DNA of 64,000 nt from IMG/VR virus record IMGVR_UViG_3300025678_000001; one strand, 5' to 3'. The stretch comes from a virus. Its lineage: Duplodnaviria; Heunggongvirae; Uroviricota; Caudoviricetes. Under the pieces are notes generated by a model. It ran no database searches. It was not told the origin of the DNA and worked only from the letters and a program-made list of their open reading frames with translations. Below are positions 4,912 through 61,546 of the stretch, in pieces; the stretch's first letter is position 1; each line of letters opens with the position of its first letter. The position numbers were made by a program, and so were the translations under genes.

Positions 4912-4914
4912 ACA

Positions 4915-6150
4915 TTATACAAGAGTTGCTCCGGTTACGATCACATTAGGACAAGGAACAGAAGCTTCTTTTACTACGGTTTTACTACATGTCTGTCCAC
5001 TCTTCACAACACAACCTTCTACAGTTACAGTATAGTTTAGAGCTGCGTTTAAGCTGGCTCCTGATACATTGAATGTGATTCCAAGTACATCTGTAGCGGC
5101 TGCGATCAGGTCAACATAACCAACATAAGTGTGGCCAGCAGAATCTTTGATTGTTACTTTAGAGCCAAGACCAGTACAGTTTGCGTAACCGGCTGGAATA
5201 TTTGTCATACCAGCAAAGAACAGAGTAACCTCGGTTCTAAGCTCGTTTGTGCCTACTGTGTAATCCAGGATAAACTGAGAGCAATCCACACCACCACAGC
5301 AGTTTTTCAGGTCCTGAATGGCTGCACGCATGTCACATACAGTAATCCAGAGGTTCTGGAAGGATTGAGCTAAGCTTGTAAGAGTGTTATTCCATCCAGC
5401 AATAGAGTTCATGTTTCCTACCTGGCTAAGTGCCGGCAGGGCCCCAAGGTTGTTACACTGTTGGGCAATAGATGCTGACAGCTGAGCTGCAGAGCCTACC
5501 TGAGTTCTCAGTTGGCAATATTGGTCTTCTAAAGCAACTACTACCTGGGTGATCGGAGTAGGTACCGCGGGGAGCACACATGTAGGTGTTACATTAGGGA
5601 TAGCAGCGGCCTGGAGGTTATTGATCTGTAACTGATGGGAAGTCAGTGTATTATTGATTGTATTGATCTGGGTTGTATGCTGATCAACTGTTACCTTAAG
5701 AGAACAGAATTGATTAGCTAAACGTAAAGTATACTGATTATGAATCAGTTGTGTTACAGTTTGCCCAGTTCCAGGATCAACATACTGAAGACAACTTGGC
5801 AGATTAAGCGTAGGTTCAGTGTAAGAAGTACCAGGTTGGATAGCCTCGATAGCTGCATTTAAACAGCAAACCTTTTTAACAATGAAGTCCAATACTGCTA
5901 ACAGAGTCTTCGTAGTTGGAGCTGGATTGGCTGAGTTACAAAAAGTGACCAGGCAAGAGAGATCCAGGTCTGTAAGGTCATACGCACTTTGGATAGTGCA
6001 GAGATGACTTGCTACCTTGTAGACTACGTCTGTGACCGTATCACCAGCGCAAAGGTTGATACAAGGCAGGTCGGGGCCCTGCCAGGTGACACAGTTTGAG
6101 GATACCGGGGAACAACCCTGTTCAGCAGTATTGGACTTTTTAGGTAACAT
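4915..6150 (-). CDS. putative tail/baseplate protein
   Basis: 411-aa ORF adjacent to the fibre genes; Q/N-rich coiled segments. Confidence 0.45.
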   Translation of the reverse strand: MLPKKSNTAEQGCSPVSSNCVTWQGPDLPCINLCAGDTVTDVVYKVASHLCTIQSAYDLTDLDLSCLVTFCNSANPAPTTKTLLAVLDFIVKKVCCLNAAIEAIQPGTSYTEPTLNLPSCLQYVDPGTGQTVTQLIHNQYTLRLANQFCSLKVTVDQHTTQINTINNTLTSHQLQINNLQAAAIPNVTPTCVLPAVPTPITQVVVALEDQYCQLRTQVGSAAQLSASIAQQCNNLGALPALSQVGNMNSIAGWNNTLTSLAQSFQNLWITVCDMRAAIQDLKNCCGGVDCSQFILDYTVGTNELRTEVTLFFAGMTNIPAGYANCTGLGSKVTIKDSAGHTYVGYVDLIAAATDVLGITFNVSGASLNAALNYTVTVEGCVVKSGQTCSKTVVKEASVPCPNVIVTGATLV

Positions 6151-12200: not shown

Positions 12201-14882
12201 TACAGCTGCTGACTGATTTAAAGCTACCGCATTCCATTCTACCTGTGTACCGGTAGCATTAACCAGAAGTGATTTATAAGCGGCACCAAGAGTAAGTTTA
12301 CCCCAGGTATTTAAGGCAGAACCGTATAACAGATCTCCTACTGCTACGGTACTTAAACCAGTACCACCATGAGTAGGATCTACAATTCCAGATAAAGAAA
12401 ACTCAGTTCCAATAAGTTGTAAAGGAGCCAATGCTGAGTAATCCGGAGATGCACTAAAGAGTGTAAAGTCAATATCACTAACACCAAAGATAATTGGTGT
12501 ACTGATCGTCATTACATAAGACTCACCAGCACCAGGACTACCTTCTTTCAGATAGAAGTAGTCACCCTGGCCAAGTTTTGATGTACTATTTGGTCCGTAT
12601 TTATTAGTATCAGTAGAGCGGGTAAGCACCCAGTTAGTAGAACCAGATCCTACGTTTGTTACGGTATAAATACCGTTTTTGTACATAGCAACATCTTGAT
12701 CAAGTAAAACTCGATCACCCACATTCATTGTAACACCATTGATGACAAGAGCTGCTTGTACACCAGCATTTGTAAGAGTGGCTCCAACACCGGTATTAGC
12801 TTTACCACCTAGAGTATATCCAGATCCATTTGTAAGAGTTGTAATCTCAACACCACCATAAGTGGCAGATACTAGAAATGTATTCGGTGTAGGTACATCA
12901 TGTACAAAGTAGGCAACACCAGTTGTCAGACCATAAGCTGATGTATTGAATGTCACTACATCATCTACAGATAATCCATGGTTTACAGAAGTTGTCAGTG
13001 TTGTACCGCCTGAGATTGCAGTTACTGTAAACGTAGTTCCACCATCAGCATAGGTGGCGTTAACAGGACCATGAAGTTCTACACGAACTGCAGGATGAAT
13101 ATCAATACCAGTTGAGGTAGCATTATCTACATACTCTTTTGTAGTAAGTTGTGTAGCGTAAGTAACTGGGGCTGTAGCATACATAGCACCAGTAGATGAT
13201 ACGTTTCCAGTAATTCTGGCTGAACCAACAACCTGGAGTTTGTTTACCGTATCATCAGTAATAGTATTCAGAAGCAGGTTACCTGTTGCTGCTTTCAAGG
13301 TCATTTTGATATCAGCAGAAGACAGACCACCTGCAAACAGCACAATATCACTACCAGGAGTACCAGTACCTAAGTAGAGCATAGAAGGCTGAGCTCCTGC
13401 CCCACCTCCGGTAAACACATAACCAGAGTTAGCTGGAAAGATTGAATAGGTACTAGAGCTGTAGTTAGAGCTGTTGATACCCATATCAATGAAATAAGAA
13501 TCTACATCTGATGCATCATTATAAGCTACAAAGTCAGCTGAAGCATCTGAACCAGCATGTAGGTTTTGTACATATACCAACTGATAGTTGTTGGTATTTG
13601 ATACAAAACTAGCCATGGTATTGATGTACGGGGTATTACTTGTAACACCAGTACCATATACCTGTAGAGTCTTTGCTATGATGTCAGTAGCTGTAAGATC
13701 GTGTAAACCAAGATCCAGATCAGAAGTTGCCCCACTATAAGGAACGAATCCTGATACAGCAGCTACAGAAAGTGTAAAGTTTGGATAACTACCAGTGATT
13801 GTTACTCCACCTCCATTTGTAAGTGTTACTACCTGATCAGGAGCAGAGTTAGTAATTACACCAGTAGTATTGTTATAGTTAATACCAGTACCAGAAGATA
13901 AACCAGTACGAGCTATATAGTTGTTTGGATTACTTAAAGGATAGTAAGTGGCTGCTGCTGTTACAGAAGTCAGATAACTACCAAGAGCAGAAGGTATGAC
14001 ATAGTCTACCCCAGCTGTGGCGGCACTGATAGCAGTACCATTACCTTTCAGTAAGCCATTGATTGTAGTAGATAAAGTGATGGCTGGTGTAGTTGTAGCA
14101 TTAGCTACAGTTCCTGCAAAACCGTTTGCTGAAACAATAGAAACAGTAGTTACTCCACCTGTAGATACTGATGCCCAGGAAAGAGAAGAGCCATCTGTTG
14201 TCAGGAATTTACCTCCATTACCAGTTTGATCAGGAAGAGTTACTTCCATCAGAAGATCTGAGTAGATTACAATATCTACCACATCACCACTATGAACTGG
14301 ATCAACAAATGTGATACTGTGAGAAGTATTAGAGAACGAAGAGGTATTTATACGAACACCATTGATGAATACATCAAAGTATCCTACAACGAGCGTATGA
14401 GTAGTATTAAAAAGAGTCTGACCTTCAATACCACTGAAACTTTCTGTATAACGAGTAGTTGCGGTACCGGAAATAGCAGCTGTGGATATGTTGGAGATAC
14501 GACCATACTGGTCAACAGTAATAATAGGAACAGCGTTTGTTCCTCCGTAAGTATCTGCAGTTACCCCGGTAGTTGCCAGATCCAGAGTAACATCACCTGT
14601 TCCAGGATCAACGCCAGTACTTAAGATTGAAAGATTAGGTCCAACTGATATCTTACTTACATATGCTACGTCAATAGAAGATCCACTCCAACCAGTACCA
14701 TTCCAGGTAAACAGGTTATTTAGAGTAATATCATAAACAATGAAACCCTTATCACTAAGACCAAGAGTTCCACCAAGAGTGGTTCTATCAGTAGTAGTTA
14801 AAGGGTGAACCCGGGCGTTTAACAGCTTGTTTTTGTCCAGGTCTATGTTGTGTAGATATCTTGTTGTATCTAAGGTAGACAT
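9300..14882 (-). CDS. giant tail fibre or tail-associated protein (1860 aa) with several internal repeat families
   Basis: 5.6-kb ORF; tandem ~50-aa repeats (SGSYA[DN]P[AT]WITSLAY[GS]KLTGAPTNVSSFTND[AS]GYITSSAL), four STYLTANQSITLSGD repeats, and the INGTTLDLS motif shared with the 721-aa fibre. Confidence 0.65.
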   Translation of the reverse strand: MSTLDTTRYLHNIDLDKNKLLNARVHPLTTTDRTTLGGTLGLSDKGFIVYDITLNNLFTWNGTGWSGSSIDVAYVSKISVGPNLSILSTGVDPGTGDVTLDLATTGVTADTYGGTNAVPIITVDQYGRISNISTAAISGTATTRYTESFSGIEGQTLFNTTHTLVVGYFDVFINGVRINTSSFSNTSHSITFVDPVHSGDVVDIVIYSDLLMEVTLPDQTGNGGKFLTTDGSSLSWASVSTGGVTTVSIVSANGFAGTVANATTTPAITLSTTINGLLKGNGTAISAATAGVDYVIPSALGSYLTSVTAAATYYPLSNPNNYIARTGLSSGTGINYNNTTGVITNSAPDQVVTLTNGGGVTITGSYPNFTLSVAAVSGFVPYSGATSDLDLGLHDLTATDIIAKTLQVYGTGVTSNTPYINTMASFVSNTNNYQLVYVQNLHAGSDASADFVAYNDASDVDSYFIDMGINSSNYSSSTYSIFPANSGYVFTGGGAGAQPSMLYLGTGTPGSDIVLFAGGLSSADIKMTLKAATGNLLLNTITDDTVNKLQVVGSARITGNVSSTGAMYATAPVTYATQLTTKEYVDNATSTGIDIHPAVRVELHGPVNATYADGGTTFTVTAISGGTTLTTSVNHGLSVDDVVTFNTSAYGLTTGVAYFVHDVPTPNTFLVSATYGGVEITTLTNGSGYTLGGKANTGVGATLTNAGVQAALVINGVTMNVGDRVLLDQDVAMYKNGIYTVTNVGSGSTNWVLTRSTDTNKYGPNSTSKLGQGDYFYLKEGSPGAGESYVMTISTPIIFGVSDIDFTLFSASPDYSALAPLQLIGTEFSLSGIVDPTHGGTGLSTVAVGDLLYGSALNTWGKLTLGAAYKSLLVNATGTQVEWNAVALNQSAAVSGELGIVNGGTGASTALAARTNLGLAIGTDIPSLTGTGASGTWSISISGNAGTVTNGVYTSGSYANPAWITSLAYGKLTGAPTNVSSFTNDAGYITSSALTGYVQTTRTLTINGTTLDLSLNRSWSVGDVLTSGSYADPTWITSLAYSKLTGAPTNVSSFTNDSGYITSSALSPYLTSATAATTYQPLDGDLSAIAALAGTTGFAKKTALNTWTLDTSTYLTANQTISFSPTGDVSSSGGSGATSLTPAITVTGLRGVALPALGASAGLLKYTGTGTNTWVFDTSTYLTANQSITLSGDVSGTGSTAITTTLATVVQSTGANFVKITLDTKGRVTGNTAVTGTDLNNTFGSQTANFVYAAPNGSAGTPGFRLLVATDIPALSYQAPLSGTGIVKSTAGVISYISGTSGQFVKGDGSLDSSTYLTANQSITLSGDISGTGTTAITTTIGANKVTNAMLAQVATGTFHGRVTAGTGNVETLTGTQATTLLDVFTSTLKGLVPASGGGTSNFLRADGTWAAPSGSGGTTTNAITFNNGGTGGTSGSTFNGASALTVSYNTIGAQPLSTNLTSLAGLSFVSTSFVKMTSAGTFALDTNTYLTGNQTITLSGAVTGSGTTAIATTLANSIVGISNLSATGTPSASTYLRGDNTWATVTASPAGSNTQIQYNNAGTLGASANFTWDDTNGILSLLATNSQMLIKGLSTEPSVPASGNTVKYSKYIAGRATARILGDTGLAMSLQSALWQNNIVLWTTTGATAGLWIGTAGAGSGTFTSALPTTTNVYTATKRSRYANVVTTTNQVLGQRNTDAMFMRGGAAGQGGFFFYTRCGFDVWTNGGRFFAGMHSATTVVSADPSALNNTVGFCVDAADNGAISFLTRGTAATKASTGFTITSKKGYDLFIYCAPNSSQYTWRIVDITTGTEASGTATTNLPTNTTLLTAGVLASNAALTVATQIQLGINRIYIETEY

Positions 14883-33920: not shown

Positions 33921-34048
33921 TAAACAAAACTCAGCAGTAGTAGTTGTCTTTAGAGTGGACTATTTCTCACTGAGGTAAGTAGATTACTAAGGGGTAATAC
34001 TTAGTAAAATTAATCAGTGTCAGCTTATATACAACTGATTCTTATCAG

Positions 34049-34120
34049 TTTCCTCCCCTGGGTACGATCCAGGAACTGCAGGGCCAAAACCTGCCGTGAT
34101 ACCAGTTTCACCAAAAGGAA
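34049..34120 (-). tRNA. tRNA-Gln(UUG)
   Basis: T-arm CCTGG/ATCGTAC/CCAGG, anticodon arm GCAGG-UUUUGGC-CCUGC, acceptor pairs with two GU. Confidence 0.6.
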
Positions 34121-34126
34121 ATAGTG

Positions 34127-34198
34127 GGTGTAAGGACGGTACCGACCCGTCTTCCCCAGGTCCACAACCTGGTGCATCACCTTAATGCTTCAAACACC
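34127..34198 (-). tRNA. tRNA-His(GUG)-like, encoded G-1/C73, two U-U mismatches in the acceptor stem
   Basis: anticodon arm CCAGG-UUGUGGA-CCUGG; T-arm GACGG/GTCGGTA/CCGTC; extra 5-prime G opposite C73. Confidence 0.45.
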
Positions 34199-34203
34199 AT
34201 AAG

Positions 34204-34275
34204 AGCCTTCTACCGGAACCGACCCGGTAAGTCCTGTTTACAAGACAGGCAGTTTTCCAGTTAGCTTAAGAAGGC
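34204..34275 (-). tRNA. tRNA-Thr(UGU)
   Basis: perfect 7-bp acceptor (GCCTTCT/AGAAGGC), T-arm ACCGG/GTCGGTT/CCGGT, anticodon loop CTTGTAA. Confidence 0.65.
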
Positions 34276-34280
34276 CTGTG

Positions 34281-34353
34281 TGGTACAGAGTGGTTACGAT
34301 CCACTTCCCCCGGTTTTTCAGACCGGTGCTTCTACCAAGTTAGCTTCTGCACC
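34281..34353 (-). tRNA. tRNA-Phe(GAA)
   Basis: T-arm AGTGG/ATCGTAA/CCACT, anticodon arm CCGGT-CTGAAAA-ACCGG, acceptor with one GU. Confidence 0.65.
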
Positions 34354-34428
34354 AAGTAGGACTTTGTCAAAGCCGGCCACTCCTGCACAAAGAGGAGACC
34401 AGCTTGATCAGGTGTCCTGAAACCTTTG

Positions 34429-34501
34429 AGGTGGGTGGGAAACTCGAAGCCCCGTATGACTGTTTTGCGGACAGTTGCCTTACCATCTTGGCGAACCCAC
34501 C
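34429..34501 (-). tRNA. tRNA-Cys(GCA)-like (C33, weak T-stem)
   Basis: acceptor GGTGGGT/ACCCACC, D-arm GCC-AAGATGGTAA-GGC, anticodon loop CCGCAAA, T-loop TTCGAGT. Confidence 0.4.
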
Positions 34502-34507
34502 ATGTTG

Positions 34508-34579
34508 TCTAGCTGATCTGGATCGAACAGACGTAATCTTGCTCCCAAAGCAAGTGCCTTACCGCTAGGCTACAGCTAG
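34508..34579 (-). tRNA. tRNA-Pro(UGG)
   Basis: acceptor CTAGCTG/CAGCTAG, D-arm GCC-TAGCGGTAA-GGC, anticodon arm CTTGC-TTTGGGA-GCAAG, T-loop TTCGATC. Confidence 0.7.
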
Positions 34580-34617
34580 AAAAAGAAAACCCCCAAACCG
34601 TTTTACCAGTCTGGGGG
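34578..34617 (-). terminator. rho-independent terminator (minus strand)
   Basis: CCCCCA...TGGGGG hairpin followed on the minus strand by TTTTCTTTTTCT. Confidence 0.5.
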
Positions 34618-34757
34618 TTAGTATTTTGATTTTGTACTTCTTAACTCGTTGCTATGATCACTGTACATACACCAACACAACTACCCCCGCAGACCGGACA
34701 AGGTTGCGTAAACTGGGTAAACTGTGTATGGGTAGTAATCTTCTTCATCTACAATAC

Positions 34758-34789
34758 AAAGATACTACTTTTTGTAGAACTACCAAAAT
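34758..34789 (-). promoter_or_regulatory. minus-strand promoter (-33 TTTTG, N19, -7 TATCTTTG) overlapping the TTGTAGAAC box
   Basis: reverse complement of caaagata (34758-65) and caaaa (34785-89); ~130 nt upstream of the 34578-34617 terminator. Confidence 0.45.
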
Positions 34790-34797
34790 CTTTTTGC

Positions 34798-34870
34798 ACG
34801 GGCCCAGGGAAACGATCCCTGTCCATCCGAGGTTTTGGAGACCTGGTGCATACCATTATGCTGGCCCATG
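34798..34870 (-). tRNA. tRNA-Trp(CCA)-like
   Basis: T-arm CAGGG/ATCGTTT/CCCTG; anticodon loop CTCCAAA with a 27-43 mismatch; acceptor with GU. Confidence 0.45.
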
Positions 34871-34875
34871 TATGT

Positions 34876-34959
34876 GGGAAGTGAGTGAGTCGAACACCCC
34901 GAGTCCGTAGACAGCTGGTTTACAATCAGCCCCGCTACCACTTACGGTATAACTTCCCC
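34876..34959 (-). tRNA. tRNA-Tyr(GUA), class II (long variable arm)
   Basis: acceptor GGGAAGT/ACTTCCC, anticodon loop TTGTAAA, T-arm GGGTG/TTCGACT/CACTC, 84 nt. Confidence 0.55.
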
Positions 34960-35040
34960 TATTTCGCATATCCAGTCAGTAGTCTTTCCGTCAAAAGCTA
35001 TCAACCAGAGTATGCCGTTCATATTAACGATGTACATGCA

Positions 35041-35123
35041 GAGAGCAGAGTAGTCGAAACCCACCCCGGTTAAGGAGCCCACTGTTTAGCAAACAGGTCT
35101 GACCACCTAGTCAGTTTACTCTC
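35041..35123 (-). tRNA. tRNA-Ser(GCU)-like, class II, T-arm poorly formed
   Basis: anticodon arm CCTGT-TTGCTAA-ACAGT, D-arm CTGAC-TAGGTG-GTCAG, acceptor GAGAGTA/TGCTCTC. Confidence 0.4.
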
Positions 35124-35129
35124 TAGATG

Positions 35130-35221
35130 CGGAAGGCAGAGGAACCGACCCCCATGCCCGTGTAAGGGGCAGCCTAGTTTTCAAGACTAGTCGCCACTCC
35201 AATGTAGCTGCATTACCTTCC
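35130..35221 (-). tRNA. tRNA-Ser(UGA), class II
   Basis: acceptor GGAAGGT/GCCTTCC, anticodon arm CTAGT-CTTGAAA-ACTAG, variable-arm hairpin, T-loop GTCGGTT. Confidence 0.6.
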
Positions 35222-35226
35222 ATGTA

Positions 35227-35313
35227 GTACCGGTGGAGGGGGATGATCCCACACGATCCTTTCGGATCACAAGATTTTAAGTCTTGCGTGTCTGCCTATT
35301 TCACCACACCGGC
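35227..35313 (-). tRNA. tRNA-Leu(UAA), class II
   Basis: anticodon arm CAAGA-CTTAAAA-TCTTG, variable-arm hairpin GATCC-GAAA-GGATC, acceptor GCCGGTG/CACCGGT. Confidence 0.55.
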
Positions 35314-35394
35314 AGTTGTCTGGACTCTCACCATAGCAGTCAGGGATTTCAGGTCCCCAGGTGTGCATTCAATTCGTCCCACCTTCTGACATCG

Positions 35395-35477
35395 TACCTC
35401 TGACAGGCCTCGAACCTGCACCCGTTTCCGGACTAGATCCTAAGTCTAGCGTGTCTCCCAAGTTTCACCACAGAGGT
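35395..35477 (-). tRNA. tRNA-Leu(UAG), class II
   Basis: perfect acceptor ACCTCTG/CAGAGGT, T-arm GCAGG/TTCGAGG/CCTGT, anticodon arm CTAGA-CTTAGGA-TCTAG. Confidence 0.65.
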
Positions 35478-35518
35478 ATAAAAACCAAAATCCCGACCAG
35501 GAAAACCTAATCGGGATT
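35478..35518 (-). terminator. rho-independent terminator (minus strand)
   Basis: 8-bp stem AATCCCGA/TCGGGATT followed on the minus strand by TTTGGTTTTTAT. Confidence 0.5.
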
Positions 35519-35673
35519 GGAAACTTTTTCAGTAACTACATACCTCACCCGATTGGTTTATGCAACCAATACAGACTGAGTGAGGATAGAGTAAACTGCT
35601 TCATAAAAATTTGGTGGATGGTCACCCCACTTGTTTTAATCTAAACAAGAAATCATCGGTCGGTTACGTTAAC

Positions 35674-35735
35674 TTCTCAGCTTGAACGCCTGTCGTGTGA
35701 CCTTTCAGCTTTCACGCCTGTTAAGAGGCTTTACC
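35674..35735. repeat. imperfect direct repeat CAGCTT(G/T)(A/C)ACGCCTGT x2, spaced 29 nt
   Basis: cagcttgaacgcctgt and cagctttcacgcctgt inside the short promoter-to-terminator unit. Confidence 0.35.
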
Positions 35736-35748
35736 GACCATCACAATA

Positions 35749-35780
35749 CAAATATACAACTCTTTTGGAGTTCTACAAAA
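35749..35780 (-). promoter_or_regulatory. minus-strand promoter (-33 TTTTG in TTTTGTAGAAC, N19, -7 TATATTTG)
   Basis: reverse complement of caaatata (35749-56) and caaaa (35776-80); transcribes a ~230-nt ORF-free segment ending at the 35478-35518 terminator. Confidence 0.45.
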
Positions 35781-35788
35781 TATTTTTG

Positions 35789-35864
35789 TGGAGACTCTGG
35801 AACTTGAATCCAGCTGATATCCTGCTTGCAAGGCAGGTGTCCACTCCTGGCAGACCCAGTCCCC
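35789..35864 (-). tRNA. tRNA-Ala(UGC)
   Basis: T-arm CTGGA/TTCAAGT/TCCAG, anticodon arm CCTGC-CTTGCAA-GCAGG. Confidence 0.6.
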
Positions 35865-35870
35865 ATGCTG

Positions 35871-35942
35871 TACTCTCGGGTGGTAACGATCCACCTACCT
35901 TCTCCGTATCAGGGAGCTACTCTACCATTGAGCTACGAGAGT
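35871..35942 (-). tRNA. tRNA-Ile(GAU)
   Basis: perfect acceptor ACTCTCG/CGAGAGT, T-arm GGTGG/ATCGTTA/CCACC, anticodon loop CTGATAC. Confidence 0.65.
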
Positions 35943-35947
35943 ATAAG

Positions 35948-36020
35948 TTGATCCGGGTGGGTACGATCCACCGACCTTGACGTTATGAGCGTCCTGCTAC
36001 TACCACTGAGCTACGGATCA
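35948..36020 (-). tRNA. tRNA-Met(CAU)
   Basis: perfect acceptor TGATCCG/CGGATCA, T-arm GGTGG/ATCGTAC/CCACC, anticodon loop CTCATAA. Confidence 0.6.
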
Positions 36021-36025
36021 GTATG

Positions 36026-36099
36026 CGGTCCGTACCGGGATCAAACCGGTCATCTCTGGCGTGACAAGCCAGCGTCTTCATCGTGCAGACCCACGGACC
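36026..36099 (-). tRNA. tRNA-Asp(GUC)
   Basis: perfect acceptor GGTCCGT/ACGGACC, T-arm ACCGG/TTTGATC/CCGGT, anticodon arm CTGGC-TTGTCAC-GCCAG. Confidence 0.7.
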
Positions 36100-36105
36100 A
36101 AATAG

Positions 36106-36180
36106 TACCCCCACCGGAGATCGAATCCGGTTCTTCACCGTGAAAGGGTGGCGTCCTGTACCTTCTAGACGATAGGGGCA
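36106..36180 (-). tRNA. tRNA-Glu(UUC)
   Basis: the sequence GCCCCTATCGTCTAGAAGGTACAGGACGCCACCCTTTCACGGTG...TTCGATC... closely parallels canonical bacterial tRNA-Glu. Confidence 0.65.
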
Positions 36181-36259
36181 AATTGGAGGCTTAGGACTCC
36201 ATCATCCTCCTTGAGATCCCGGCGTCCTTCTACTTTTTATAGTACGGATCTCTTTTACG

Positions 36260-36331
36260 AGCAGCATCTCGGGGTCGATCCGAGTTCTCCGGTTTGGAAG
36301 ACCGGCACATCAGCCCTAATGCTTATGCTGC
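36260..36331 (-). tRNA. tRNA-Gly(UCC)
   Basis: perfect acceptor GCAGCAT/ATGCTGC, T-arm CTCGG/ATCGACC/CCGAG, anticodon arm CCGGT-CTTCCAA-ACCGG. Confidence 0.7.
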
Positions 36332-36445
36332 ATGAAAGAACAGAGCTCCAGGGGAATCTCACCCGTCTGTCCGGAACAGACCTCACTGCCTTTTACTATG
36401 TACGGTATTTACTCGTACACAACAGCTACCTGAAGATGATCTTGG

Positions 36446-36515
36446 TTGCGGGGCCGGGATTTGAACCCGGGAAACACGGCTTATGAGACCGGTCGGCCAC
36501 CTGGCTCCCCACAAT
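36446..36515 (-). tRNA. tRNA-like gene, anticodon arm unresolved
   Basis: canonical T-arm CCGGG/TTCAAAT/CCCGG and acceptor pairing TGTGGGG/CCCCGCA, but the interior is 2 nt short of a standard cloverleaf. Confidence 0.3.
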
Positions 36516-36522
36516 AAAACTG

Positions 36523-36595
36523 CGGACTCTCCGGGGAACGATCCTGGAACCTTCACCTTAACAGGGTGCCGCTCTACCAGTTGAGCTAAGAGTCC
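36523..36595 (-). tRNA. tRNA-Asn(GUU)
   Basis: perfect acceptor GGACTCT/AGAGTCC, D-arm AGCTCAACTGGTAGAGCG, anticodon loop CTGTTAA, T-loop ATCGTTC. Confidence 0.7.
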
Positions 36596-36596
36596 G

Positions 36597-36668
36597 TATA
36601 CTTAGAAGGATTCCAACCTTCACTTTCAGTTTAGAAGACTGACGTGCTAAGCATTACACCATAAGTAC
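36597..36668 (-). tRNA. tRNA-Arg(UCU)
   Basis: T-arm GAAGG/TTGGAAT/CCTTC, anticodon arm TCAGT-CTTCTAA-ACTGA. Confidence 0.65.
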
Positions 36669-36676
36669 ATATCTGG

Positions 36677-36747
36677 AAGACCCGGAGGTAGTCGAAACCC
36701 CATCATCACGTTCGTAGCGTGATATCCTTCCATTGAACGACGGGTCC
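36677..36747 (-). tRNA. tRNA-Arg(ACG)
   Basis: acceptor GGACCCG/CGGGTCT, T-arm GGGGT/TTCGACT/ACCTC, anticodon arm TCACG-CTACGAA-CGTGA. Confidence 0.65.
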
Positions 36748-36802
36748 TTGTTAAGACCGTCTTCGGTAATATGTACTGTAGTGTGTCATGTCTTCTGTCT
36801 GG

Positions 36803-36876
36803 TAGCTCCTATCCGGGTCGAACGGATGCATTCTCGGTATGTAACACCGAAGCTCTACCACCTGAGCTAAGGAGCT
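36803..36876 (-). tRNA. tRNA-Val(UAC)
   Basis: perfect acceptor AGCTCCT/AGGAGCT, D-arm TAGCTCAGGTGGTAGAGCT, T-arm ATCCG/TTCGACC/CGGAT, anticodon loop GTTACAT. Confidence 0.7.
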
Positions 36877-36882
36877 ATTTGA

Positions 36883-36932
36883 AGCTCATTATTGAGCTTG
36901 AATGAGCTGAATATTGAGCTTAATCGGCTCAT
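36883..36932. promoter_or_regulatory. palindromic operator AGCTCA-N4-TGAGCT plus three phased TGAGCT half-sites
   Basis: AGCTCATTATTGAGCT at 36883-98; TGAGCT again at 36903, 36915; GGCTCA at 36927; lies between tRNA-Val and tRNA-Lys. Confidence 0.4.
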
Positions 36933-36940
36933 ATATCTTG

Positions 36941-37012
36941 TTCCCCCGTCCGGTAACGATCCGGACCCCACGGATTAAAAGTCCGTTGCCTACACCTGTT
37001 TGCTACGAGGGA
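36941..37012 (-). tRNA. tRNA-Lys(UUU)
   Basis: T-arm TCCGG/ATCGTTA/CCGGA, anticodon arm ACGGA-CTTTTAA-TCCGT, acceptor with one GU. Confidence 0.65.
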
Positions 37013-40281: not shown

Positions 40282-40503
40282 ATGAAATACTTCACTCTCA
40301 TCTACGGTATTGTGGTATTCCTTCTGGCCACTGTTCTTCTGATCATGGTACCTCAGCGTGTACCTCATATGAACGCAGGTCAGTGGACCATGCTTCTTAT
40401 GATCTGTATACTGGGATACTTCTCAGCCGGCCTGTGTTTCTGGGTGTATACCCAGACCAGGAAAGATCCGGTCATGGAAGACTATGCCAGACTGGGTCAT
40501 TGA
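40282..40503 (+). CDS. small membrane protein (hypothetical)
   Basis: 73-aa ORF with two hydrophobic helices. Confidence 0.3.
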   Translation: MKYFTLIYGIVVFLLATVLLIMVPQRVPHMNAGQWTMLLMICILGYFSAGLCFWVYTQTRKDPVMEDYARLGH

Positions 40504-44324: not shown

Positions 44325-44699
44325 ATGGAAAAACTTTTTATCGACCTTAACGAAGGTTACATTCATCTTACACTCGGTATCTCTGAAGAACGTGCCCGTG
44401 AGCTTGGAAAAGCTGTGGCAGAAACAGTTAAAAATGCTCGTCAAAACGGCATCATCACAGATGTTGAGAAAGACGGTCAAAAAGGCGTTAAGATCAGCGG
44501 TCCGCGTCTGTTGGAAATCCTGCTGAATGATGTGGCTCAAACTGAACCGGAACGGATCATGTTGATGTCCAAGTTTGAAAGTATGATAAAAGATCTCAGA
44601 TCTAGCATGGATGATACTTTTGAACAGCTTAAAGATCTGCTGAAACAGATGAAAGAAGCTCAATCTGCTGGTTCGGATGAGTCTACTACTCAGCTGTAA
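44325..44699 (+). CDS. hypothetical protein, paralog A of a tandem pair
   Basis: 124 aa; clear similarity to the next ORF (ISEERARELGK vs ITDERAEKLGK; LLNDVAQTEPERI vs LLNEVAQTTAEQI). Confidence 0.55.
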   Translation: MEKLFIDLNEGYIHLTLGISEERARELGKAVAETVKNARQNGIITDVEKDGQKGVKISGPRLLEILLNDVAQTEPERIMLMSKFESMIKDLRSSMDDTFEQLKDLLKQMKEAQSAGSDESTTQL

Positions 44700-44782: not shown

Positions 44783-45115
44783 ATGGAAAAGATTAACATC
44801 GTCCACGGACCTGACTATCTGCATCTGAACTTCGGTATCACCGACGAACGTGCTGAAAAACTGGGCAAGATCGTCTTTGACGAGATCATAGCCAAAGCTG
44901 TCGAGAGAGGCATCATTGCCACCTACAAAGACGAGAACACAGGAGACGAAGGTCTTACTGTTATTGGTAGCAAACTGGCTGAAGCTCTGCTCAATGAGGT
45001 TGCTCAGACAACTGCTGAACAGATCTTTCTGTTCGTAAGGTTCGATGACCTCCTGAACAACCTGGGCGCGAAGATCATGGTCATGCAGCAAGAAGCTGAT
45101 GAACAGGTCGAGTAA
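44783..45115 (+). CDS. hypothetical protein, paralog B of a tandem pair
   Basis: 110 aa; paralog of 44325-44699; conserved upstream ACACCC-AAACCATCCAA-ATGGAAAA and downstream CCTGTTAC hairpin. Confidence 0.55.
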   Translation: MEKINIVHGPDYLHLNFGITDERAEKLGKIVFDEIIAKAVERGIIATYKDENTGDEGLTVIGSKLAEALLNEVAQTTAEQIFLFVRFDDLLNNLGAKIMVMQQEADEQVE

Positions 45116-46453: not shown

Positions 46454-46524
46454 TTTGTTTACACTTTGTAGAACTAAGAAAAACGTCTACATTTGTTCTA
46501 CATCTTTAAAGTTTACATGTTACA
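46454..46524 (+). promoter_or_regulatory. iteron-like cluster of GTT(C)TACA repeats with a TTGTAGAAC box upstream of the wHTH gene
   Basis: GTTTACA, TTGTAGAAC, GTCTACA, GTTCTACA, GTTTACA, GTTACA within 70 bp. Confidence 0.35.
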
Positions 46525-46808
46525 TGAAAAAGAATCCCCGGTTGTCCGGTGGGTTTGGAATGGTATCCAAGACAGTAATGTCAGATCCAGAACTCTCCAT
46601 GAGAGAGAAGGGTCTGTATGCTTACCTGGCTACATATGCTGATAGTGTAACAAACGAGCTGACAGTAAGTGTAAACAGGATGTGTGCTGAGCTTGGTATT
46701 ACCCAGGCCACCGTTAAAAGATCTTTGAGTTTACTTGAGAAGAAAGGTATCATAACCAGAGTTGACAAACGTGCATGCACTGTAAGAACTACAGTGCTTT
46801 TAAAATAA
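46524..46808 (+). CDS. winged-helix DNA-binding protein (replisome-organiser/DnaD-like N-terminal domain?)
   Basis: MKKNPRLSGG...LYAYLATYADSVTNELTVSVNRMCAELGITQATVKRSLSLLEKKGIITRV wHTH pattern; iteron-like GTTCTACA repeats upstream. Confidence 0.5.
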   Translation: MKKNPRLSGGFGMVSKTVMSDPELSMREKGLYAYLATYADSVTNELTVSVNRMCAELGITQATVKRSLSLLEKKGIITRVDKRACTVRTTVLLK

Positions 46809-47238: not shown

Positions 47239-47970
47239 ATGAAACATTCTAAAGTCGTAGGCCAGATCTACGAAACAACCAATTATGAAATGTTCAAAAA
47301 ACGCAGTGACAACCGTCAGCTGAAAGAACACATCGTAAAAGAAAGAATGGAAAGCATCAAGCAGATTGGCCAACAAGATGCTATCAAGGTTTCTAAAGAC
47401 TTTATGGTAGACGACGGCCAACATCGGTTGGAAGCTTGCAGAAGGCTTCAAAAACCGGTAAAATATACTTTCCAGGAAGAGCCGCTCAGTACTCACGAGC
47501 TGGCCACCTTGCAGACACAATCTTCCCGGTGGAAGGTTGAAGACCACGCTCAATCTTTCCTGTCAAAAGGAATTGAAGACTACAGACTTTATAACCTGTT
47601 TGTAAAACTCTATCCTGAGTTCAACCACAGTGTTGCGTTAGTTCTTCTGACCAATACGATCAGCAGAAACCGTCACACTGAAGAACAATTCAAGATCGGA
47701 ACATTCAAAGTGAAAAGCTATACGAAAGCCGTTAAGCTGGCAGATCAGCTTAGAAAAATAGGTGAGTACTATGAAGGCTATGTTCGTAATGGATTTATCC
47801 AGGCATTTCTGACTTTGGCTGAACATCCGGACTTTGAGTTCAACCGGTTACTCCGGAAGATTCCTAAGCGTAGGAAAGAACTGATGGACTTCTCTAAAGC
47901 AGAGGATTACATCCAAACACTGGAACATATGTACAACTGGAAAGAAACCAAGAAAGTACAGTTTACATAA
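47239..47970 (+). CDS. ParB-like nuclease domain protein
   Basis: DGQHRLEA motif (ParB/Srx DGxHR) in a 243-aa ORF. Confidence 0.5.
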   Translation: MKHSKVVGQIYETTNYEMFKKRSDNRQLKEHIVKERMESIKQIGQQDAIKVSKDFMVDDGQHRLEACRRLQKPVKYTFQEEPLSTHELATLQTQSSRWKVEDHAQSFLSKGIEDYRLYNLFVKLYPEFNHSVALVLLTNTISRNRHTEEQFKIGTFKVKSYTKAVKLADQLRKIGEYYEGYVRNGFIQAFLTLAEHPDFEFNRLLRKIPKRRKELMDFSKAEDYIQTLEHMYNWKETKKVQFT

Positions 47971-48005: not shown

Positions 48006-48227
48006 ATGCGTAAACTAATCTTAGAGATCCTGGTAGCACTGGTAACACTTTGTGTGACTGTTAATGCGGTGTACTACCTGGGAGATATCCTCTCCGGAAA
48101 AATCAACTTCCTCATCATGTTTGTGGTACTGTTTGCTCTCGGAGTTTGTGTCATAGCATCAGTTTACGTTCTGATGAGAGTGGTTAAAACCTATTCTCAA
48201 ACTGTAAAAAAACAAAGTAAGTCATGA
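48006..48227 (+). CDS. small membrane protein, translationally coupled to the SPFH gene
   Basis: 73-aa two-TM ORF; its stop overlaps the next start (ATGA). Confidence 0.45.
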   Translation: MRKLILEILVALVTLCVTVNAVYYLGDILSGKINFLIMFVVLFALGVCVIASVYVLMRVVKTYSQTVKKQSKS

Positions 48228-49210
48228 TTTTCCTCATCACCCTCATCTTGTCACTCGGCCTTTTAGGTCTGATGTTCGGGATCTTCAATTTCAACAACTA
48301 CGTTAAAGTAGTCAAAAAAGAAGTAAACTACGGTAGCAGAACCCAAACTATTGAAGAAGAACAAGTCAACGTTGCTCAGATCATTAAGACAGCAGCCGTT
48401 GTTCTCTTCTGTATCATCGCATCTGCTGTAAATCCTCTTTCCCTGCAGCGTATTGACGCCGGTAATGTGGGTCTTAAGATCGACAAAGTCGGTAACATGA
48501 AAGGTATCCCTACCGCTATCCCGGTAAAGGGTTGGGTATTCTATAATGACTGGACTACAGACATCGTAGAGTATTCTATCCGCCAGGGTCACGTACAGTA
48601 TGAAGCATTCGATGTAACTACCAAAGGTGGTTTCAACATCAAGGTAAACCCGAGCTTCAACTTTGCCCTGAAACCTGAGAAAGCCGCGGACGTCTATATC
48701 AACCTGCTGAAAGGTGGAAGCTTCTCCAGTCTTACTGATAACTGGATCAAGACAGCTACCAACATCGCCATGAATAATGCTACGAATAAGTATACCATTG
48801 ACAGCATCTTCAACAACCGGGAACACTATCAACAGGATATCATCAAAGAGCTCAACAAAGAAATGAGTGCTTACTTTACTGTGTCCCAGATCAATCCTGG
48901 TGTTGTCCCGCCTCCGGAACTGGCTAACGTAATCAAGCAGAAAACTGAAACTATTCAGAAAGCACAACAGGCTGAGCTTGACCGTATTACAGCTGAGAAC
49001 GAAGCTCTTACAAAGATCGCTACGGCTCGTGGTGACTCAGCTCAGGCTGTGATCCAGGCTGCAGGTAGGGCCGAAGCTATCAAGCGTGAACAACAGACTC
49101 TTACACCCTTATACATCGAGTATATCAAAACTCAGAAGTGGAACGGTGATGTACCCAGTACTGTGTTAGGTAACTCCAACGGGTTCATGATCAACCTCAA
49201 TAACAAGTAA
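48224..49210 (+). CDS. SPFH/band-7 (prohibitin/HflK-like) domain protein
   Basis: N-terminal TM, SPFH-like core, C-terminal A/E/Q-rich coiled coil (QKAQQAELDRITAENEALTKIATARGDSAQAVIQAAGRAEAIKREQQ). Confidence 0.6.
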   Translation: MIFLITLILSLGLLGLMFGIFNFNNYVKVVKKEVNYGSRTQTIEEEQVNVAQIIKTAAVVLFCIIASAVNPLSLQRIDAGNVGLKIDKVGNMKGIPTAIPVKGWVFYNDWTTDIVEYSIRQGHVQYEAFDVTTKGGFNIKVNPSFNFALKPEKAADVYINLLKGGSFSSLTDNWIKTATNIAMNNATNKYTIDSIFNNREHYQQDIIKELNKEMSAYFTVSQINPGVVPPPELANVIKQKTETIQKAQQAELDRITAENEALTKIATARGDSAQAVIQAAGRAEAIKREQQTLTPLYIEYIKTQKWNGDVPSTVLGNSNGFMINLNNK

Positions 49211-49265
49211 CAAAGAGCCGGGTAAAACCGGCTCCCTTCATATCACCCTAAAAAATACTACTGCT

Positions 49266-50113: not shown

Positions 50114-50914
50114 ATGAGTTACGCCATTAAACTTTTATTCTTTTTAGGTAGTTGTATTCTTGCATTTGTAGCCGGTAGGCTTACAAGCAGTCTGTCTTAC
50201 CACTGGAGTCAAGTGGATGGGCCGAATCAGGCCGTTATAGTTTCACCCAATGACAGTACCACACAAGTCAACGGTTTGGTACAGGGTGTCTATCATTTTG
50301 AGTTAGCAGTTACCGACCCTCAAGGAGCTACAGGACGGGATACCATGATGGTTACCGTACTTCCTGGAGTTCTTCCTATCAAACTGGTTTACTTCAAAGC
50401 GTACCCGCTGGCTGATGTAAACATGATCAAGTGGAAAACATCTGAAGAGATAAACATAAAAGAGTTTATCCTGGAATCCTCTACAGACGGTGTTCATTTT
50501 TACGGTCTCTATCATACGTTTGCTATCGGAGCTACACCAACCTCTCCTTCTGAGTATGACTATGAACATAAGTTCCCAGGAAGAGAGCAGTATTACAGAC
50601 TTAAGTCTATTGAGACATCTGGTACTTATACATACAGTGATGTTGTAAAAGTAACCAGATCTATTTCGACATCTATTTGGTCAAACAACCCTGTTACATC
50701 GACTCTTAATGTTACCATAAACGTAGATAATGCTACTACAGCTAACTTCTACATTTATGATGCTACCGGAAGAAGAATGGCATTCTATACGTACAATCTA
50801 AGTCCTGGTAAGAACAGTTTCAGTTATCATACTGGTCAGTATGCTTCTGGTCTGTATATCATTAAAGTTGACGTAGGAGGTATTATCTCAACCAAAAAAT
50901 TCGTCAAACAATGA
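50114..50914 (+). CDS. secreted protein with Ig/PKD-like domain and a Type IX secretion system C-terminal sorting domain
   Basis: signal peptide MSYAIKLLFFLGSCILAFVAG; C-terminus ...NSFSYHTGQYASGLYIIKVDVGGIISTKKFVKQ matches the Por/T9SS CTD pattern; the ORF-track start at 50003 is rejected because it lies within a tRNA-like element. Confidence 0.65.
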   Translation: MSYAIKLLFFLGSCILAFVAGRLTSSLSYHWSQVDGPNQAVIVSPNDSTTQVNGLVQGVYHFELAVTDPQGATGRDTMMVTVLPGVLPIKLVYFKAYPLADVNMIKWKTSEEINIKEFILESSTDGVHFYGLYHTFAIGATPTSPSEYDYEHKFPGREQYYRLKSIETSGTYTYSDVVKVTRSISTSIWSNNPVTSTLNVTINVDNATTANFYIYDATGRRMAFYTYNLSPGKNSFSYHTGQYASGLYIIKVDVGGIISTKKFVKQ

Positions 50915-51174
50915 ACCCTCATGCTTTAATAACCTTTATCGTTTGTATAGGAGGTTTTCTTTGGCTTGTTACATCCAGTACTATCGTTGTTCTATGCAAG
51001 CCACAGCTTCCCAAGCTTTGGTGGTATAAAAACTGGTTACTTATTGTACAGGTACTCTGTGCTTTTATACTACTTCTGATGGGACTTCAGAAAGCTTCTC
51101 AAGATGTTGGATTCAAAGAAGACAAACCTCAATACGAACAAATCAATGAACCTTTATACAGATTAAAACAGTAA
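50911..51174 (+). CDS. small membrane protein
   Basis: 87-aa ORF with two TM helices. Confidence 0.4.
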   Translation: MNPHALITFIVCIGGFLWLVTSSTIVVLCKPQLPKLWWYKNWLLIVQVLCAFILLLMGLQKASQDVGFKEDKPQYEQINEPLYRLKQ

Positions 51175-54844: not shown

Positions 54845-55084
54845 ATGAAAGTCTTATTCGGAAAGATGCCCAGTAAGTTGATCGTACGTTTGAAGATAGC
54901 ACTGGGTATCTTTACTATCTGTACGATCTTTGGGATTATAGGGTACTTTGTACCTTCTTCAAAGCCTCCCTTACTTAGAACATTTGCTGCGTTCATCCTA
55001 CCACTTGCTTGTCTAACAGCAGTTCTGATCTTGTTTAAGATCATGGAATTTATCCTGTGGTGTTTTGATTGTAAGCCCAGGTAA
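54845..55084 (+). CDS. small membrane protein (hypothetical)
   Basis: 79-aa ORF with two TM helices, downstream of the tRNA-like gene. Confidence 0.3.
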   Translation: MKVLFGKMPSKLIVRLKIALGIFTICTIFGIIGYFVPSSKPPLLRTFAAFILPLACLTAVLILFKIMEFILWCFDCKPR

Positions 55085-60874: not shown

Positions 60875-61275
60875 TCCAAACCAAGTTAAAACCGTGTGCC
60901 GGCTGTAAACAGCTGAAGCATATATGGAAGTCCCATGGAAAGGAAAAGTACTGTAAAGAGTGCTGGTACTCTATGGAAAAACCCAAACCCATCCCGCCTA
61001 TCTCTAAGAAAAGGAAGACGGAGATGTCCGAGTATGATAAACGCAGAAGTCTGTTCTTGATAGCGAATCCTAAGTGTCAGGCCAATCTCGTGGGGTGTAC
61101 GTTGGTAGCAACCGATGTACACCACACGGAGGGCCGTATAGGAGAGAACTATCTGAACATGTCTAAGTGGAAAGCTCTCTGCAGAAACTGTCATACCTGG
61201 ATAGAAACACATCCCGAAGAGGCTAAAGAGCTTGGCCTTTCTTCATCACGTTTAAACGAACCTAAAAATGAATAA
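60871..61275 (+). CDS. HNH endonuclease
   Basis: CAGC...CKEC zinc knuckle, DVHHTEGR...N...CRNCH (HNH His-Asn-His with flanking Cys pairs). Confidence 0.6.
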   Translation: MIQTKLKPCAGCKQLKHIWKSHGKEKYCKECWYSMEKPKPIPPISKKRKTEMSEYDKRRSLFLIANPKCQANLVGCTLVATDVHHTEGRIGENYLNMSKWKALCRNCHTWIETHPEEAKELGLSSSRLNEPKNE

Positions 61276-61546
61276 GTATTCCCTGTTACTGAACATCGGT
61301 ATCATAGTTATCTGTGCGTTGTTCTTGGCTCAGATCTCTATCCAGTTCAAACCGTTCAAAATCGAACTGAAGAACTGGTTACAAGCCGTGGGATACCTGG
61401 TACTGTTTGCCGGTATCGGTATTCTGATCGTAGACACACACTCAAAAGCTTATGCAAAGGGTGTTCATGATGGTGGTGAGGTCTATGAGAAAGCCTTGAT
61501 AGAAAAAATCAATGAGTTCAAGATGAACCACCCGACCAAAGAATAA
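61268..61546 (+). CDS. small membrane protein
   Basis: 92-aa ORF with two TM helices. Confidence 0.4.
   Translation: MNKYSLLLNIGIIVICALFLAQISIQFKPFKIELKNWLQAVGYLVLFAGIGILIVDTHSKAYAKGVHDGGEVYEKALIEKINEFKMNHPTKE

Follow-up and report, generated by a model that had tools for sequence, protein, structure and literature searches.

A two-gene membrane module of a small hairpin protein and an SPFH protein conserved in Bacteroidota and their phages

Proteins of the SPFH family (prohibitins, stomatins, flotillins, and HflK/C) form membrane-organizing cages in all domains of life. To our knowledge, most bacterial members have no known function, and the sole recognized dedicated partner that we know of, NfeD, is restricted to the cytoplasm-facing stomatin and flotillin types. 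Here, we analyzed a pair of overlapping genes (positions 48006 to 49210, plus strand) in a 64,000-nucleotide (nt) stretch of DNA from a tailed phage (Caudoviricetes; IMG/VR record IMGVR_UViG_3300025678_000001), hereafter the window, in which a 73-amino-acid (aa) protein with two transmembrane (TM) helices is encoded directly upstream of a 328-aa SPFH protein. Comparison with related loci showed that this pair is a conserved two-gene membrane module of Bacteroidota hosts and their phages. We lean toward the view that the small protein, a helical hairpin, is a dedicated membrane-embedded subunit of an SPFH ring that is prohibitin-like, faces the periplasm, and is built by the phage in the host inner membrane.

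Several described systems provide context for this locus. The Escherichia coli QmcA-YbbJ cage consists of 26 SPFH-partner heterodimers and is an example of stoichiometric coassembly (PMC13086221). In Bacillus subtilis, YdjG/YdjH are needed to place the SPFH protein YdjI at the membrane (PMC8581546; bioRxiv 10.64898/2026.02.06.704340). For the prohibitin-like SPFH4 group, as for SPFH6 to SPFH12, an NfeD partner was never found, and SPFH4 is predicted to be periplasm oriented (Hinderhofer et al. 2009, PMC2636767). In phages, SPFH genes have been described before and are widespread, occurring also in strictly lytic phages, and what the phage literature offers on their role is speculation about HflK/C-FtsH (PMC8540360, PMC4936722). 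Our literature search returned no reported function for any phage SPFH protein and no description of the hairpin partner.

The partner gene occupies positions 48006 to 48227 and the SPFH gene positions 48224 to 49210, both on the plus strand, exactly where an initial annotation, made by reading the sequence without database searches, had placed them. The SPFH start codon lies on the partner stop codon in a 4-nt ATGA overlap (48224 to 48227) by which the two genes are predicted to be translationally coupled, as that annotation had also proposed. From the list of open reading frames (ORFs) and hydropathy, the partner begins with a short N-terminus (MRK), followed by TM1 (about residues 4 to 22; nt 48015 to 48071), a short loop with the sequence YYLGDILSGKI (nt 48072 to 48104), TM2 (about residues 34 to 56; nt 48105 to 48173), and a basic tail, MRVVKTYSQTVKKQSKS, with five lysine or arginine residues (nt 48174 to 48224).

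The two genes also occur together elsewhere. A synteny survey covered the window and 115 further loci, comprising 31 IMG/VR contigs, 80 bacterial genome contigs, and reference-phage and metagenome loci. A two-TM ORF of 48 to 74 aa, with its end located -14 to +32 nt relative to the start of the SPFH gene, was present in 90 of the 116 loci, and the identical -4 (ATGA) overlap was seen in 41 of these 90; the pairing is far beyond chance. The closest SPFH relatives, L002 and L003 (75 to 77% identity in the SPFH protein), each have a 69- to 71-aa two-TM ORF with the ATGA overlap. Of the 78 bacterial loci in which the SPFH ORF is complete, approximately 70 have a partner, many of them on megabase contigs, and these loci are almost all from Chitinophagaceae (Lacibacter, Ferruginibacter, Flavisolibacter, Flavihumibacter, Segetibacter, and Terrimonas), with the others from other Bacteroidia; carriers of the host operon include Lacibacter luteus and Flavihumibacter petaseus. 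Phage contigs from IMG/VR have the pair as well. Among reference phages, the crAss-like phages cr85_1 and cr128_1 (MT774392.1) encode two-TM partners of 65 and 67 aa, respectively, each with an 11-nt overlap and each preceding an SPFH protein that is a lipoprotein; the cr128_1 partner (L117, positions 1242 to 1445) is unannotated in GenBank. In Lak-C1, an 86-aa partner lies 25 nt upstream of the gene for an SPFH protein that is likewise a lipoprotein, and in Bacillus phage BigBertha and Staphylococcus phage SA1 a small ORF with a single TM helix sits at the partner position. The SPFH gene of cr85_1 is annotated as a serine protease, a name that its sequence does not support.

A single-sequence search with the 73-aa protein returned only itself among 5.8 billion sequences, and synteny was therefore used to find the partner family, with a profile applied afterward. 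This profile, built from the window and Chitinophagaceae types, retrieved 64 proteins, mostly of 65 to 69 aa (range, 63 to 121), all of which are named "hypothetical" or bear spurious automatic names and none of which contains a Pfam domain. In profile-profile comparison, the window partner (which belongs to what we call the type A family) matched the Chitinophagaceae chromosomal partner with 93% probability (hhalign, E = 3e-7), and the "LPNTIANIFG" partner type was homologous to the crAss-type partner (84%), while controls with reversed or column-shuffled profiles reached at most 3%. The median ratio of nonsynonymous to synonymous substitution rates (dN/dS) for the partner was 0.19, with values below 1 in all 29 informative pairs; the corresponding figure for its SPFH neighbor was 0.04. 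These values show that the small ORF is genuine and evolves under purifying selection. It is extremely unlikely that the upstream ORF arose by chance and that the SPFH gene alone is real. Its short, hydrophobic product, its retrieval of only itself in a word-based search, and its absence from the annotation of some GenBank records would all fit such an origin; however, its conserved position, length, and two-TM pattern, the purifying selection, the homology across types with clean controls, and the existence of in-frame fusions already contradict it.

Such fusions came to light in an exhaustive search with an SPFH profile. Among its top 150 matches, at least 10 cluster representatives (P0211, P0332, P0216, P0235, P0245, P0297, P0298, P0328, P0277, and P0327) carry a 60- to 90-aa N-terminal extension in the same ORF as the SPFH domain. 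The order within these proteins is a two-TM hairpin with an "EPSD...G"-type loop, a basic stretch, a hydrophobic signal with a lipobox cysteine, and then the SPFH domain. Two fusion ORFs were followed on DNA and are uninterrupted, one (L120, positions 4001 to 5038) next to Rep3 and RNase H genes in a phage- or plasmid-like context and the other (L121, positions 4001 to 5092) in a phage context with Pam3-like tail and baseplate genes, ParB, and Prim-Pol. By profile-profile comparison, the fused hairpins matched the window partner type with 90.5% probability (E = 1.4e-6 over 63 columns) and the crAss/type-B partners with 92.8% (E = 3.9e-7). Since the fused hairpins are homologous to the free partners, they constitute Rosetta-stone evidence that hairpin and SPFH protein act together. 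An AlphaFold2 (AF2) model of one natural fusion showed the expected helices only, and we draw no interaction claim from it. If signal peptidase II were to cut at the internal lipobox, the hairpin would be separated from an SPFH protein bearing the lipid; such a maturation route would be unusual.

The initial annotation had likened the pair to bacterial NfeD-SPFH operons, and this comparison holds for gene organization and fails for the partner itself. As in many nfeD-SPFH operons, the partner is upstream, codirectional, adjacent, membrane embedded, and translationally coupled, and one might thus regard the small protein as a degenerate NfeD. However, the window partner gave no match to NfeD (PF01957) or to any oligonucleotide/oligosaccharide-binding (OB) fold at E values up to 1 in Pfam and up to 0.1 in PHROGs and NCBIfam, and no significant match of any kind in Pfam, PHROGs, NCBIfam, or PADLOC; likewise, six relatives spanning every partner type had no NfeD or other curated-family match in Pfam or NCBIfam. 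There is also no room for an OB-fold, because the 73 aa already hold two TM helices and leave just ~17 residues outside the membrane. Furthermore, NfeD accompanies cytoplasm-facing stomatin and flotillin types, whereas the SPFH domain here is predicted to be periplasmic. NfeD homology is thus contradicted at the domain level for every partner type, and we regard a true NfeD-SPFH operon as highly improbable.

The flanks of the chromosomal copies differ between genera and include carotenoid genes, an ABC ATPase/transporter, a permease, and cyanophycinase; because these are variable housekeeping genes, the pair is an autonomous host operon rather than a prophage remnant, and a prophage origin of the chromosomal copies was ruled out. 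This finding also bears on whether the small protein could be a class II holin or antiholin whose triggering is controlled by the SPFH protein to time lysis. The partner family shares with class II holins its small size (~70 aa), two TM helices, N-in/C-in topology, and a strongly basic, charged C-terminal tail, and there was a weak, below-threshold match to Pfam Phage_holin_3_6 (E = 0.013). It departs from these holins in lacking a lysis-cassette context and in not being restricted to phages and prophages: the homologous pair is found beside housekeeping genes in dozens of Chitinophagaceae genomes, no endolysin or other lysis gene adjoins it in the window or its relatives, and the hairpin also occurs fused to the SPFH protein. 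The holin reading was therefore rejected as very unlikely, and the existence of the operon in host chromosomes contradicts a role in lysis control.

The SPFH identity of the 328-aa protein, proposed by the initial annotation, is borne out by a clear hidden Markov model match to Pfam PF01145 (Band_7/SPFH; 64 bits against a gathering cutoff of 23.6, E = 2.4e-17, residues 76 to 254), which rises to 73 to 74 bits for host relatives, and by a match to PHROG 200 (E = 1.4e-46, 160 bits) that aligns residues 28 to 327 with profile positions 71 to 361 of 379. There were 1,534 homologues at E < 1e-5 in the 5.8-billion-protein set, and an exhaustive profile search of 1.84 billion representatives gave 3,033 matches at E < 1e-3, 953 at E < 1e-10, and 98 at E < 1e-30; a single-protein pattern scan of IMG/VR retrieved no relative, and an exact look-up of protein P0001 gave no record. 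The subfamily has a fixed layout of TM1, a variable basic loop, TM2, an invariant proline, R-I/V-D-x-G, the SPFH domain, an alanine-rich helix, and LTP..Y/I..KW.G..P.T.LG. In the window protein, alignment and hydropathy place the membrane-anchor region at positions 48227 to 48433, comprising TM1 (residues 2 to 22), the variable basic loop (residues 23 to 52), TM2 (residues 53 to 70), and the invariant Pro71. TM2 is the counterpart of the segment that serves shorter homologues as their sole anchor or as a lipoprotein signal, because profile matches to those homologues begin at about position 48. The TM1-TM2 loop varies from ~15 to 45 residues across the family; in the window protein (positions 48290 to 48379), AF2 folds it as a beta-hairpin with strands at residues 27 to 36 and 39 to 48 and a predicted local distance difference test (pLDDT) score of ~70 to 80.

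Beyond the anchor, the SPFH (Band 7) domain spans residues 76 to 254 (positions 48449 to 48985) by its Pfam envelope and appears as an alpha/beta domain in the AF2 model, which was built with 36 relatives and has an overall pLDDT of 76. It is followed by an alanine-rich, long helical region, residues 231 to 304 (positions 48914 to 49135), modeled as helices 231 to 269, 273 to 292, and 295 to 304. In the model, this region would be equivalent to the coiled-coil wall of SPFH cages, and a prohibitin-1 profile match spans it. A conserved C-terminal motif, LTPLYIEYIKTQKWNGDVPSTVLG (residues 293 to 316; positions 49100 to 49171), has invariant Y297, P311, T313, and G316 in the alignment, and its "KW(D/N)G.(V/L)P" element is also present in crAss, Bacillus-phage, and fused homologues. 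When the full-length model was searched with Foldseek, prohibitin came first (6e-11), closely followed by HflK/C (~1e-9) and stomatin, with QmcA-YbbJ at 2.7e-8 and erlin and flotillin cage subunits also within the overall range of 6e-11 to 1e-7, so that the coiled-coil tail and the resemblance to HflK/C and prohibitin suggested at the outset have held up. In sequence-profile comparison with the PDB, the best match was prohibitin 1 at a marginal E value of 0.005, followed by HflK at 0.008, and the HflK equivalog model TIGR01933 scored 25.3 bits against a cutoff of 159.4 (12 to 13 bits for host relatives). Because the profile matches are marginal and the HflK equivalog model fails, the SPFH protein is prohibitin/HflK-like in architecture and apparently a member of neither family.

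The orientation of the two proteins was examined from charge distributions. Across the hairpin family, mean charges are +0.85 at the N-terminus, net negative in the loop, and +2.6/-0.17 in the C-terminal tail; with a positive N-terminus and tail and a negative loop, the hairpin is predicted to be N-in/C-in. SPFH family members have an N-terminal tail of one or two uncharged residues, a TM1-TM2 loop with +4.4/-1.9, and +3.0/-3.7 in the 25 residues past TM2. Since the loop is positive and the region past TM2 negative, the loop is predicted to be cytoplasmic and the SPFH domain periplasmic. The fusions point the same way, as a lipobox following an N-in/C-in hairpin is sensible only if the SPFH domain is outside, and homologues of the lipoprotein type independently support a periplasmic SPFH domain. 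Taken together at the family level, charge statistics, lipoprotein homologues, and fusions thus strongly suggest a periplasmic SPFH domain, the orientation of HflK/C and prohibitins.

Based on these observations, a model of the module can be proposed. The first product would be a 65- to 75-aa helical hairpin, N-in/C-in, with a short periplasmic loop and a basic cytoplasmic tail, and the second an SPFH protein of the prohibitin/HflK-like type, with both its SPFH domain and its long helical tail turned toward the periplasm. Coupling through ATGA would favor roughly equal coexpression of the two. Through its helical tail and C-terminal motif, the SPFH protein would be expected to close into a ring or cage at the periplasmic side of the host inner membrane, with the hairpin as a stoichiometric membrane subunit, as NfeD/YbbJ is for QmcA, without homology to NfeD. 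In the lipoprotein-type variants, the hairpin would give the complex its only transmembrane segments. By expressing the pair from its nonstructural plus-strand arm, the phage would set up a fenced membrane microdomain of its own in the cell that it infects, and the likeliest use would be to shield or organize membrane proteins, possibly acting on host FtsH as HflK/C and prohibitins do.

This role during infection is a tentative proposal, and among candidate roles we rank FtsH modulation or membrane-protein protection first, superinfection exclusion second, and lysis control last. Protease modulation and exclusion had already been suggested in the initial annotation. In a version centered on the protease, the module would be an HflK/C-type modulator in which the phage ring binds and cages host FtsH and so changes how fast membrane and regulatory proteins of the phage or the host are turned over, with the hairpin as an adaptor or decoy substrate. 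The predicted periplasm-facing SPFH domain, shared with HflK/C, would suit such a modulator, as would the Foldseek match to HflK/C-FtsH structures and the association of HflK/C, QmcA, and prohibitins alike with FtsH-type proteases. SPFH4 has been proposed as an HflK/C replacement (PMC2636767), and the same idea has been voiced speculatively in phage papers (PMC8540360, PMC4936722). However, the TIGR01933 score is far below its cutoff, there is one SPFH gene rather than an HflK/HflC pair, and most occurrences of the family are in large virulent phages, for which a lysogeny switch has no relevance; an HflK/C-type protease modulator is thus a possible but rather doubtful explanation. That the ring and hairpin alter the inner membrane against DNA entry by competing phages is less probable again, and we consider it decidedly unlikely. 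Homologues are accessory genes in temperate phages (P1-like, phiP27, and Stx2a phages), the gene lies in a nonstructural arm rich in small membrane proteins, and fast partner evolution would suit an arms race. Nevertheless, neither protein has a PADLOC match, the dN/dS values well below 1 give no sign of diversifying selection, and conservation of the module is as strong in strictly virulent large phages as it is in host chromosomes.

Several observations weigh against the hairpin as a dedicated subunit of a periplasm-facing prohibitin-like ring, which nonetheless remains our preferred explanation. Flavobacterium phage FL-1 and an IMG/VR clade designated "ERVDSGKVAILV" have an SPFH gene and no hairpin partner, and because of these clades the hairpin is evidently not obligatory. 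Partner evolution is also very fast: between the window and L002 or L003, the SPFH proteins are 77 to 80% identical in this comparison and the partners 26 to 33%. The window partner has T14 and V55 in place of two near-invariant histidines, one per helix, that are found in at least 90% of the family, and one partner type ("YFEYCxNRP," from other Bacteroidia) could not be linked to the rest by profile homology. For the SPFH protein, assignment to a prohibitin-like subgroup is weak at the sequence level (the PDB profile match noted above), and the window protein taken alone carries a net charge of ~+2 on either side of TM2, which is not decisive for its orientation. Finally, we infer ring or cage assembly by analogy with all solved SPFH assemblies, and likewise we infer physical contact between hairpin and SPFH protein from coupling, co-occurrence, and fusion.

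The loss of the histidines suggests that partner function is relaxed or altered in this lineage; in the close relative L002, only the second histidine is kept. Host pairs with SPFH proteins that are 80 to 90% identical have partners that are ~42% identical. Within one SPFH clade, the "LPNTIANIFG" and "YYIGD" partner types alternate (L004, L009 to L014, and L017 versus L006 to L008, L011, L015, L016, and L018). The two types have a weak direct relation (47%) and are linked via the fused hairpins, and their alternation indicates either cassette-like swapping or extreme partner divergence.

The initial annotation had called phage-encoded SPFH proteins uncommon. In frequency this stands, since tblastn found an SPFH homologue in 162 of 50,697 phage records (0.3%). 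It does not stand for breadth, as the homologues form an established PHROG and span many phage groups, including Herelleviridae, AR9/PBS1, Lak megaphages, crAss-like, P1-like, and phiP27/Stx2a phages, and Klebsiella, Stenotrophomonas, and Agrobacterium phages; PhiCrAssBcn3 is one crAss-like phage with a homologue. By these same measures (PHROG 200 and the 162 records), it is nothing out of the ordinary for a large phage to carry this SPFH gene. In a neighbor-joining tree, computed without bootstrap, the window groups with L002 to L005 and L025 in a clade whose known members all come from phage or metagenome contigs. The Chitinophagaceae host clade has a different IMG/VR clade as its sister, and one SPFH clade holds both partner types. 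GC content, GC content at third codon positions (GC3), and codon usage of the module genes are like those of the phage core genes. Recent horizontal capture by this phage was ruled out by this core-like composition together with the phage-only clade. From tree placement and composition, we conclude that the module has passed between hosts and phages on more than one occasion and has long been resident in this phage lineage. The analysis also shows a host origin for the module.

The surroundings of the module are those of a tailed phage, with matches to major head, portal, and large terminase proteins, all encoded on the minus strand. A 1,860-aa ORF in this structural arm (9300 to 14882, minus strand) is a strong compositional outlier, with a GC3 of 0.257 compared with 0.51 to 0.57 in the genes for the major head, portal, and terminase proteins. 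Between the structural arm and an accessory arm lie 17 clustered tRNA genes (34048 to 37012, minus strand), and from ~42 kb onward the plus strand is crowded with small, mostly unannotatable, nonstructural genes. Among them, ORFs at 44325 to 44699 (124 aa) and 44783 to 45115 (110 aa) on the plus strand are tandem paralogues with 40% identity over 98 residues (E = 4e-21). Four more two-TM small ORFs (73 to 92 aa) lie on the plus strand of the accessory arm (40282 to 40503, 50911 to 51174, 54845 to 55084, and 61268 to 61546), none beside an SPFH gene.

Only one SPFH gene is present, and its neighbors are a ParB-like gene, the hairpin gene, and a 79-aa coiled-coil ORF. The ParB-like gene (47239 to 47970, plus strand; phrog_12305, E = 2.7e-33) ends 35 nt upstream of the 73-aa ORF and is itself preceded by an HTH_36 gene (46524 to 46808, plus strand) whose small product is similar to the N-terminal part of replication initiators. 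The SPFH module may be cotranscribed with the ParB-like gene, because no sigma-70-like promoter was found between them in a scan that does not cover Bacteroidota promoters and in which sites were no commoner than in shuffled sequence. Beginning 5 nt past the SPFH stop codon is a GC-rich RNA hairpin with a 7-bp stem and 6-nt loop (49215 to 49234, plus strand; -15 kcal/mol, z = -4.1), and none of 200 shuffles folded equally well. It has no T-run on the plus strand, the scan calls it terminator-like on the minus strand, and it is likely a transcription-unit end or an RNA-stabilizing element. A 234-aa antisense ORF inside the SPFH gene (48263 to 48967) was without support and was taken as a shadow ORF.

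Approximately 900 nt downstream, a 266-aa protein (50114 to 50914, plus strand) has an N-terminal hydrophobic segment and a C-terminal type IX secretion system (T9SS) type A sorting domain (TIGR04183, 43 bits against a cutoff of 23). By its sequence, it looks like a phage-encoded cargo of the host T9SS. The phage host is almost certainly a member of the Bacteroidota, to which the T9SS-sorted protein is a strong pointer.

In sum, judging from the available libraries and literature, the conserved hairpin partner, its fused form, and its shared distribution in hosts and phages appear to be undescribed. A conserved, selected, and sometimes fused hairpin for a periplasm-facing, prohibitin-like SPFH protein is a concrete two-component system to reconstitute, with a directly testable topology. 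Half of the module has been missed by annotators, the ORF being absent from the cr128_1 record and "hypothetical" everywhere else. Since the module is found both in abundant gut phages (crAss-like and Lak) and in soil and freshwater Chitinophagaceae, it should offer a tractable entry to the role of phage SPFH proteins in infection. A bolder proposal, which we consider unlikely, is that the mini-hairpin founds an unrecognized, widespread class of SPFH-cage subunits that replaces NfeD for periplasm-facing (prohibitin/HflK-like) types, either from its own coupled gene or in fused form, with large Bacteroidota phages (crAss-like, Lak, and the present lineage) and other phages that have the fused form using the cage for host takeover; the cage would then fence an inner-membrane patch, for example, by sequestering FtsH or by sheltering phage membrane proteins from quality control. 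Conversely, if the hairpin is dispensable, the finding shrinks to one more ordinary phage SPFH gene.

Among known systems, the phage SPFH proteins of PHROG 200 (variously named lipoprotein, prohibitin family protein, band-7-like membrane protein, and at times, wrongly, serine protease) have the same SPFH core and C-terminal motif, and the NCBI annotation pipeline PGAP names the phage homologues "prohibitin family protein." The window subfamily differs from them in having two N-terminal TM helices rather than a lipobox or single anchor, and the adjacent hairpin gene of this group had not been pointed out before. The YdjG/YdjH-YdjI (SamGHI) system of B. subtilis, which works with PspA, similarly combines small membrane proteins with an SPFH protein in one operon; however, YdjI is soluble, cytoplasmic, and PspA linked, the topology is different, and no homology to the window pair was detected. 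With prohibitins and SPFH4, the likeness lies in the best profile and Foldseek matches to human PHB1/PHB2, albeit with marginal sequence similarity (E = 0.005), in having no NfeD partner, and in a predicted periplasmic (intermembrane-space-like) orientation; membership in SPFH4 is at most tentative, and a hairpin partner is not described for that group. HflK/HflC-FtsH (PDB 7vhq, 7wi3, and 9cz2) resembles the window protein in its N-terminal anchor, its periplasm-facing SPFH domain (predicted here), its helical wall, and its C-terminal cap segment, whereas the window has one SPFH gene with an extra TM1 and a separate hairpin in place of a paralogue pair. E. coli QmcA-YbbJ (PDB 8z5g), like the window pair, consists of an SPFH protein and a cotranscribed small membrane partner; there, YbbJ has an NfeD OB-fold and the cage faces the cytoplasm, whereas the partner in the window is a bare hairpin and its SPFH domain is predicted to face the periplasm.

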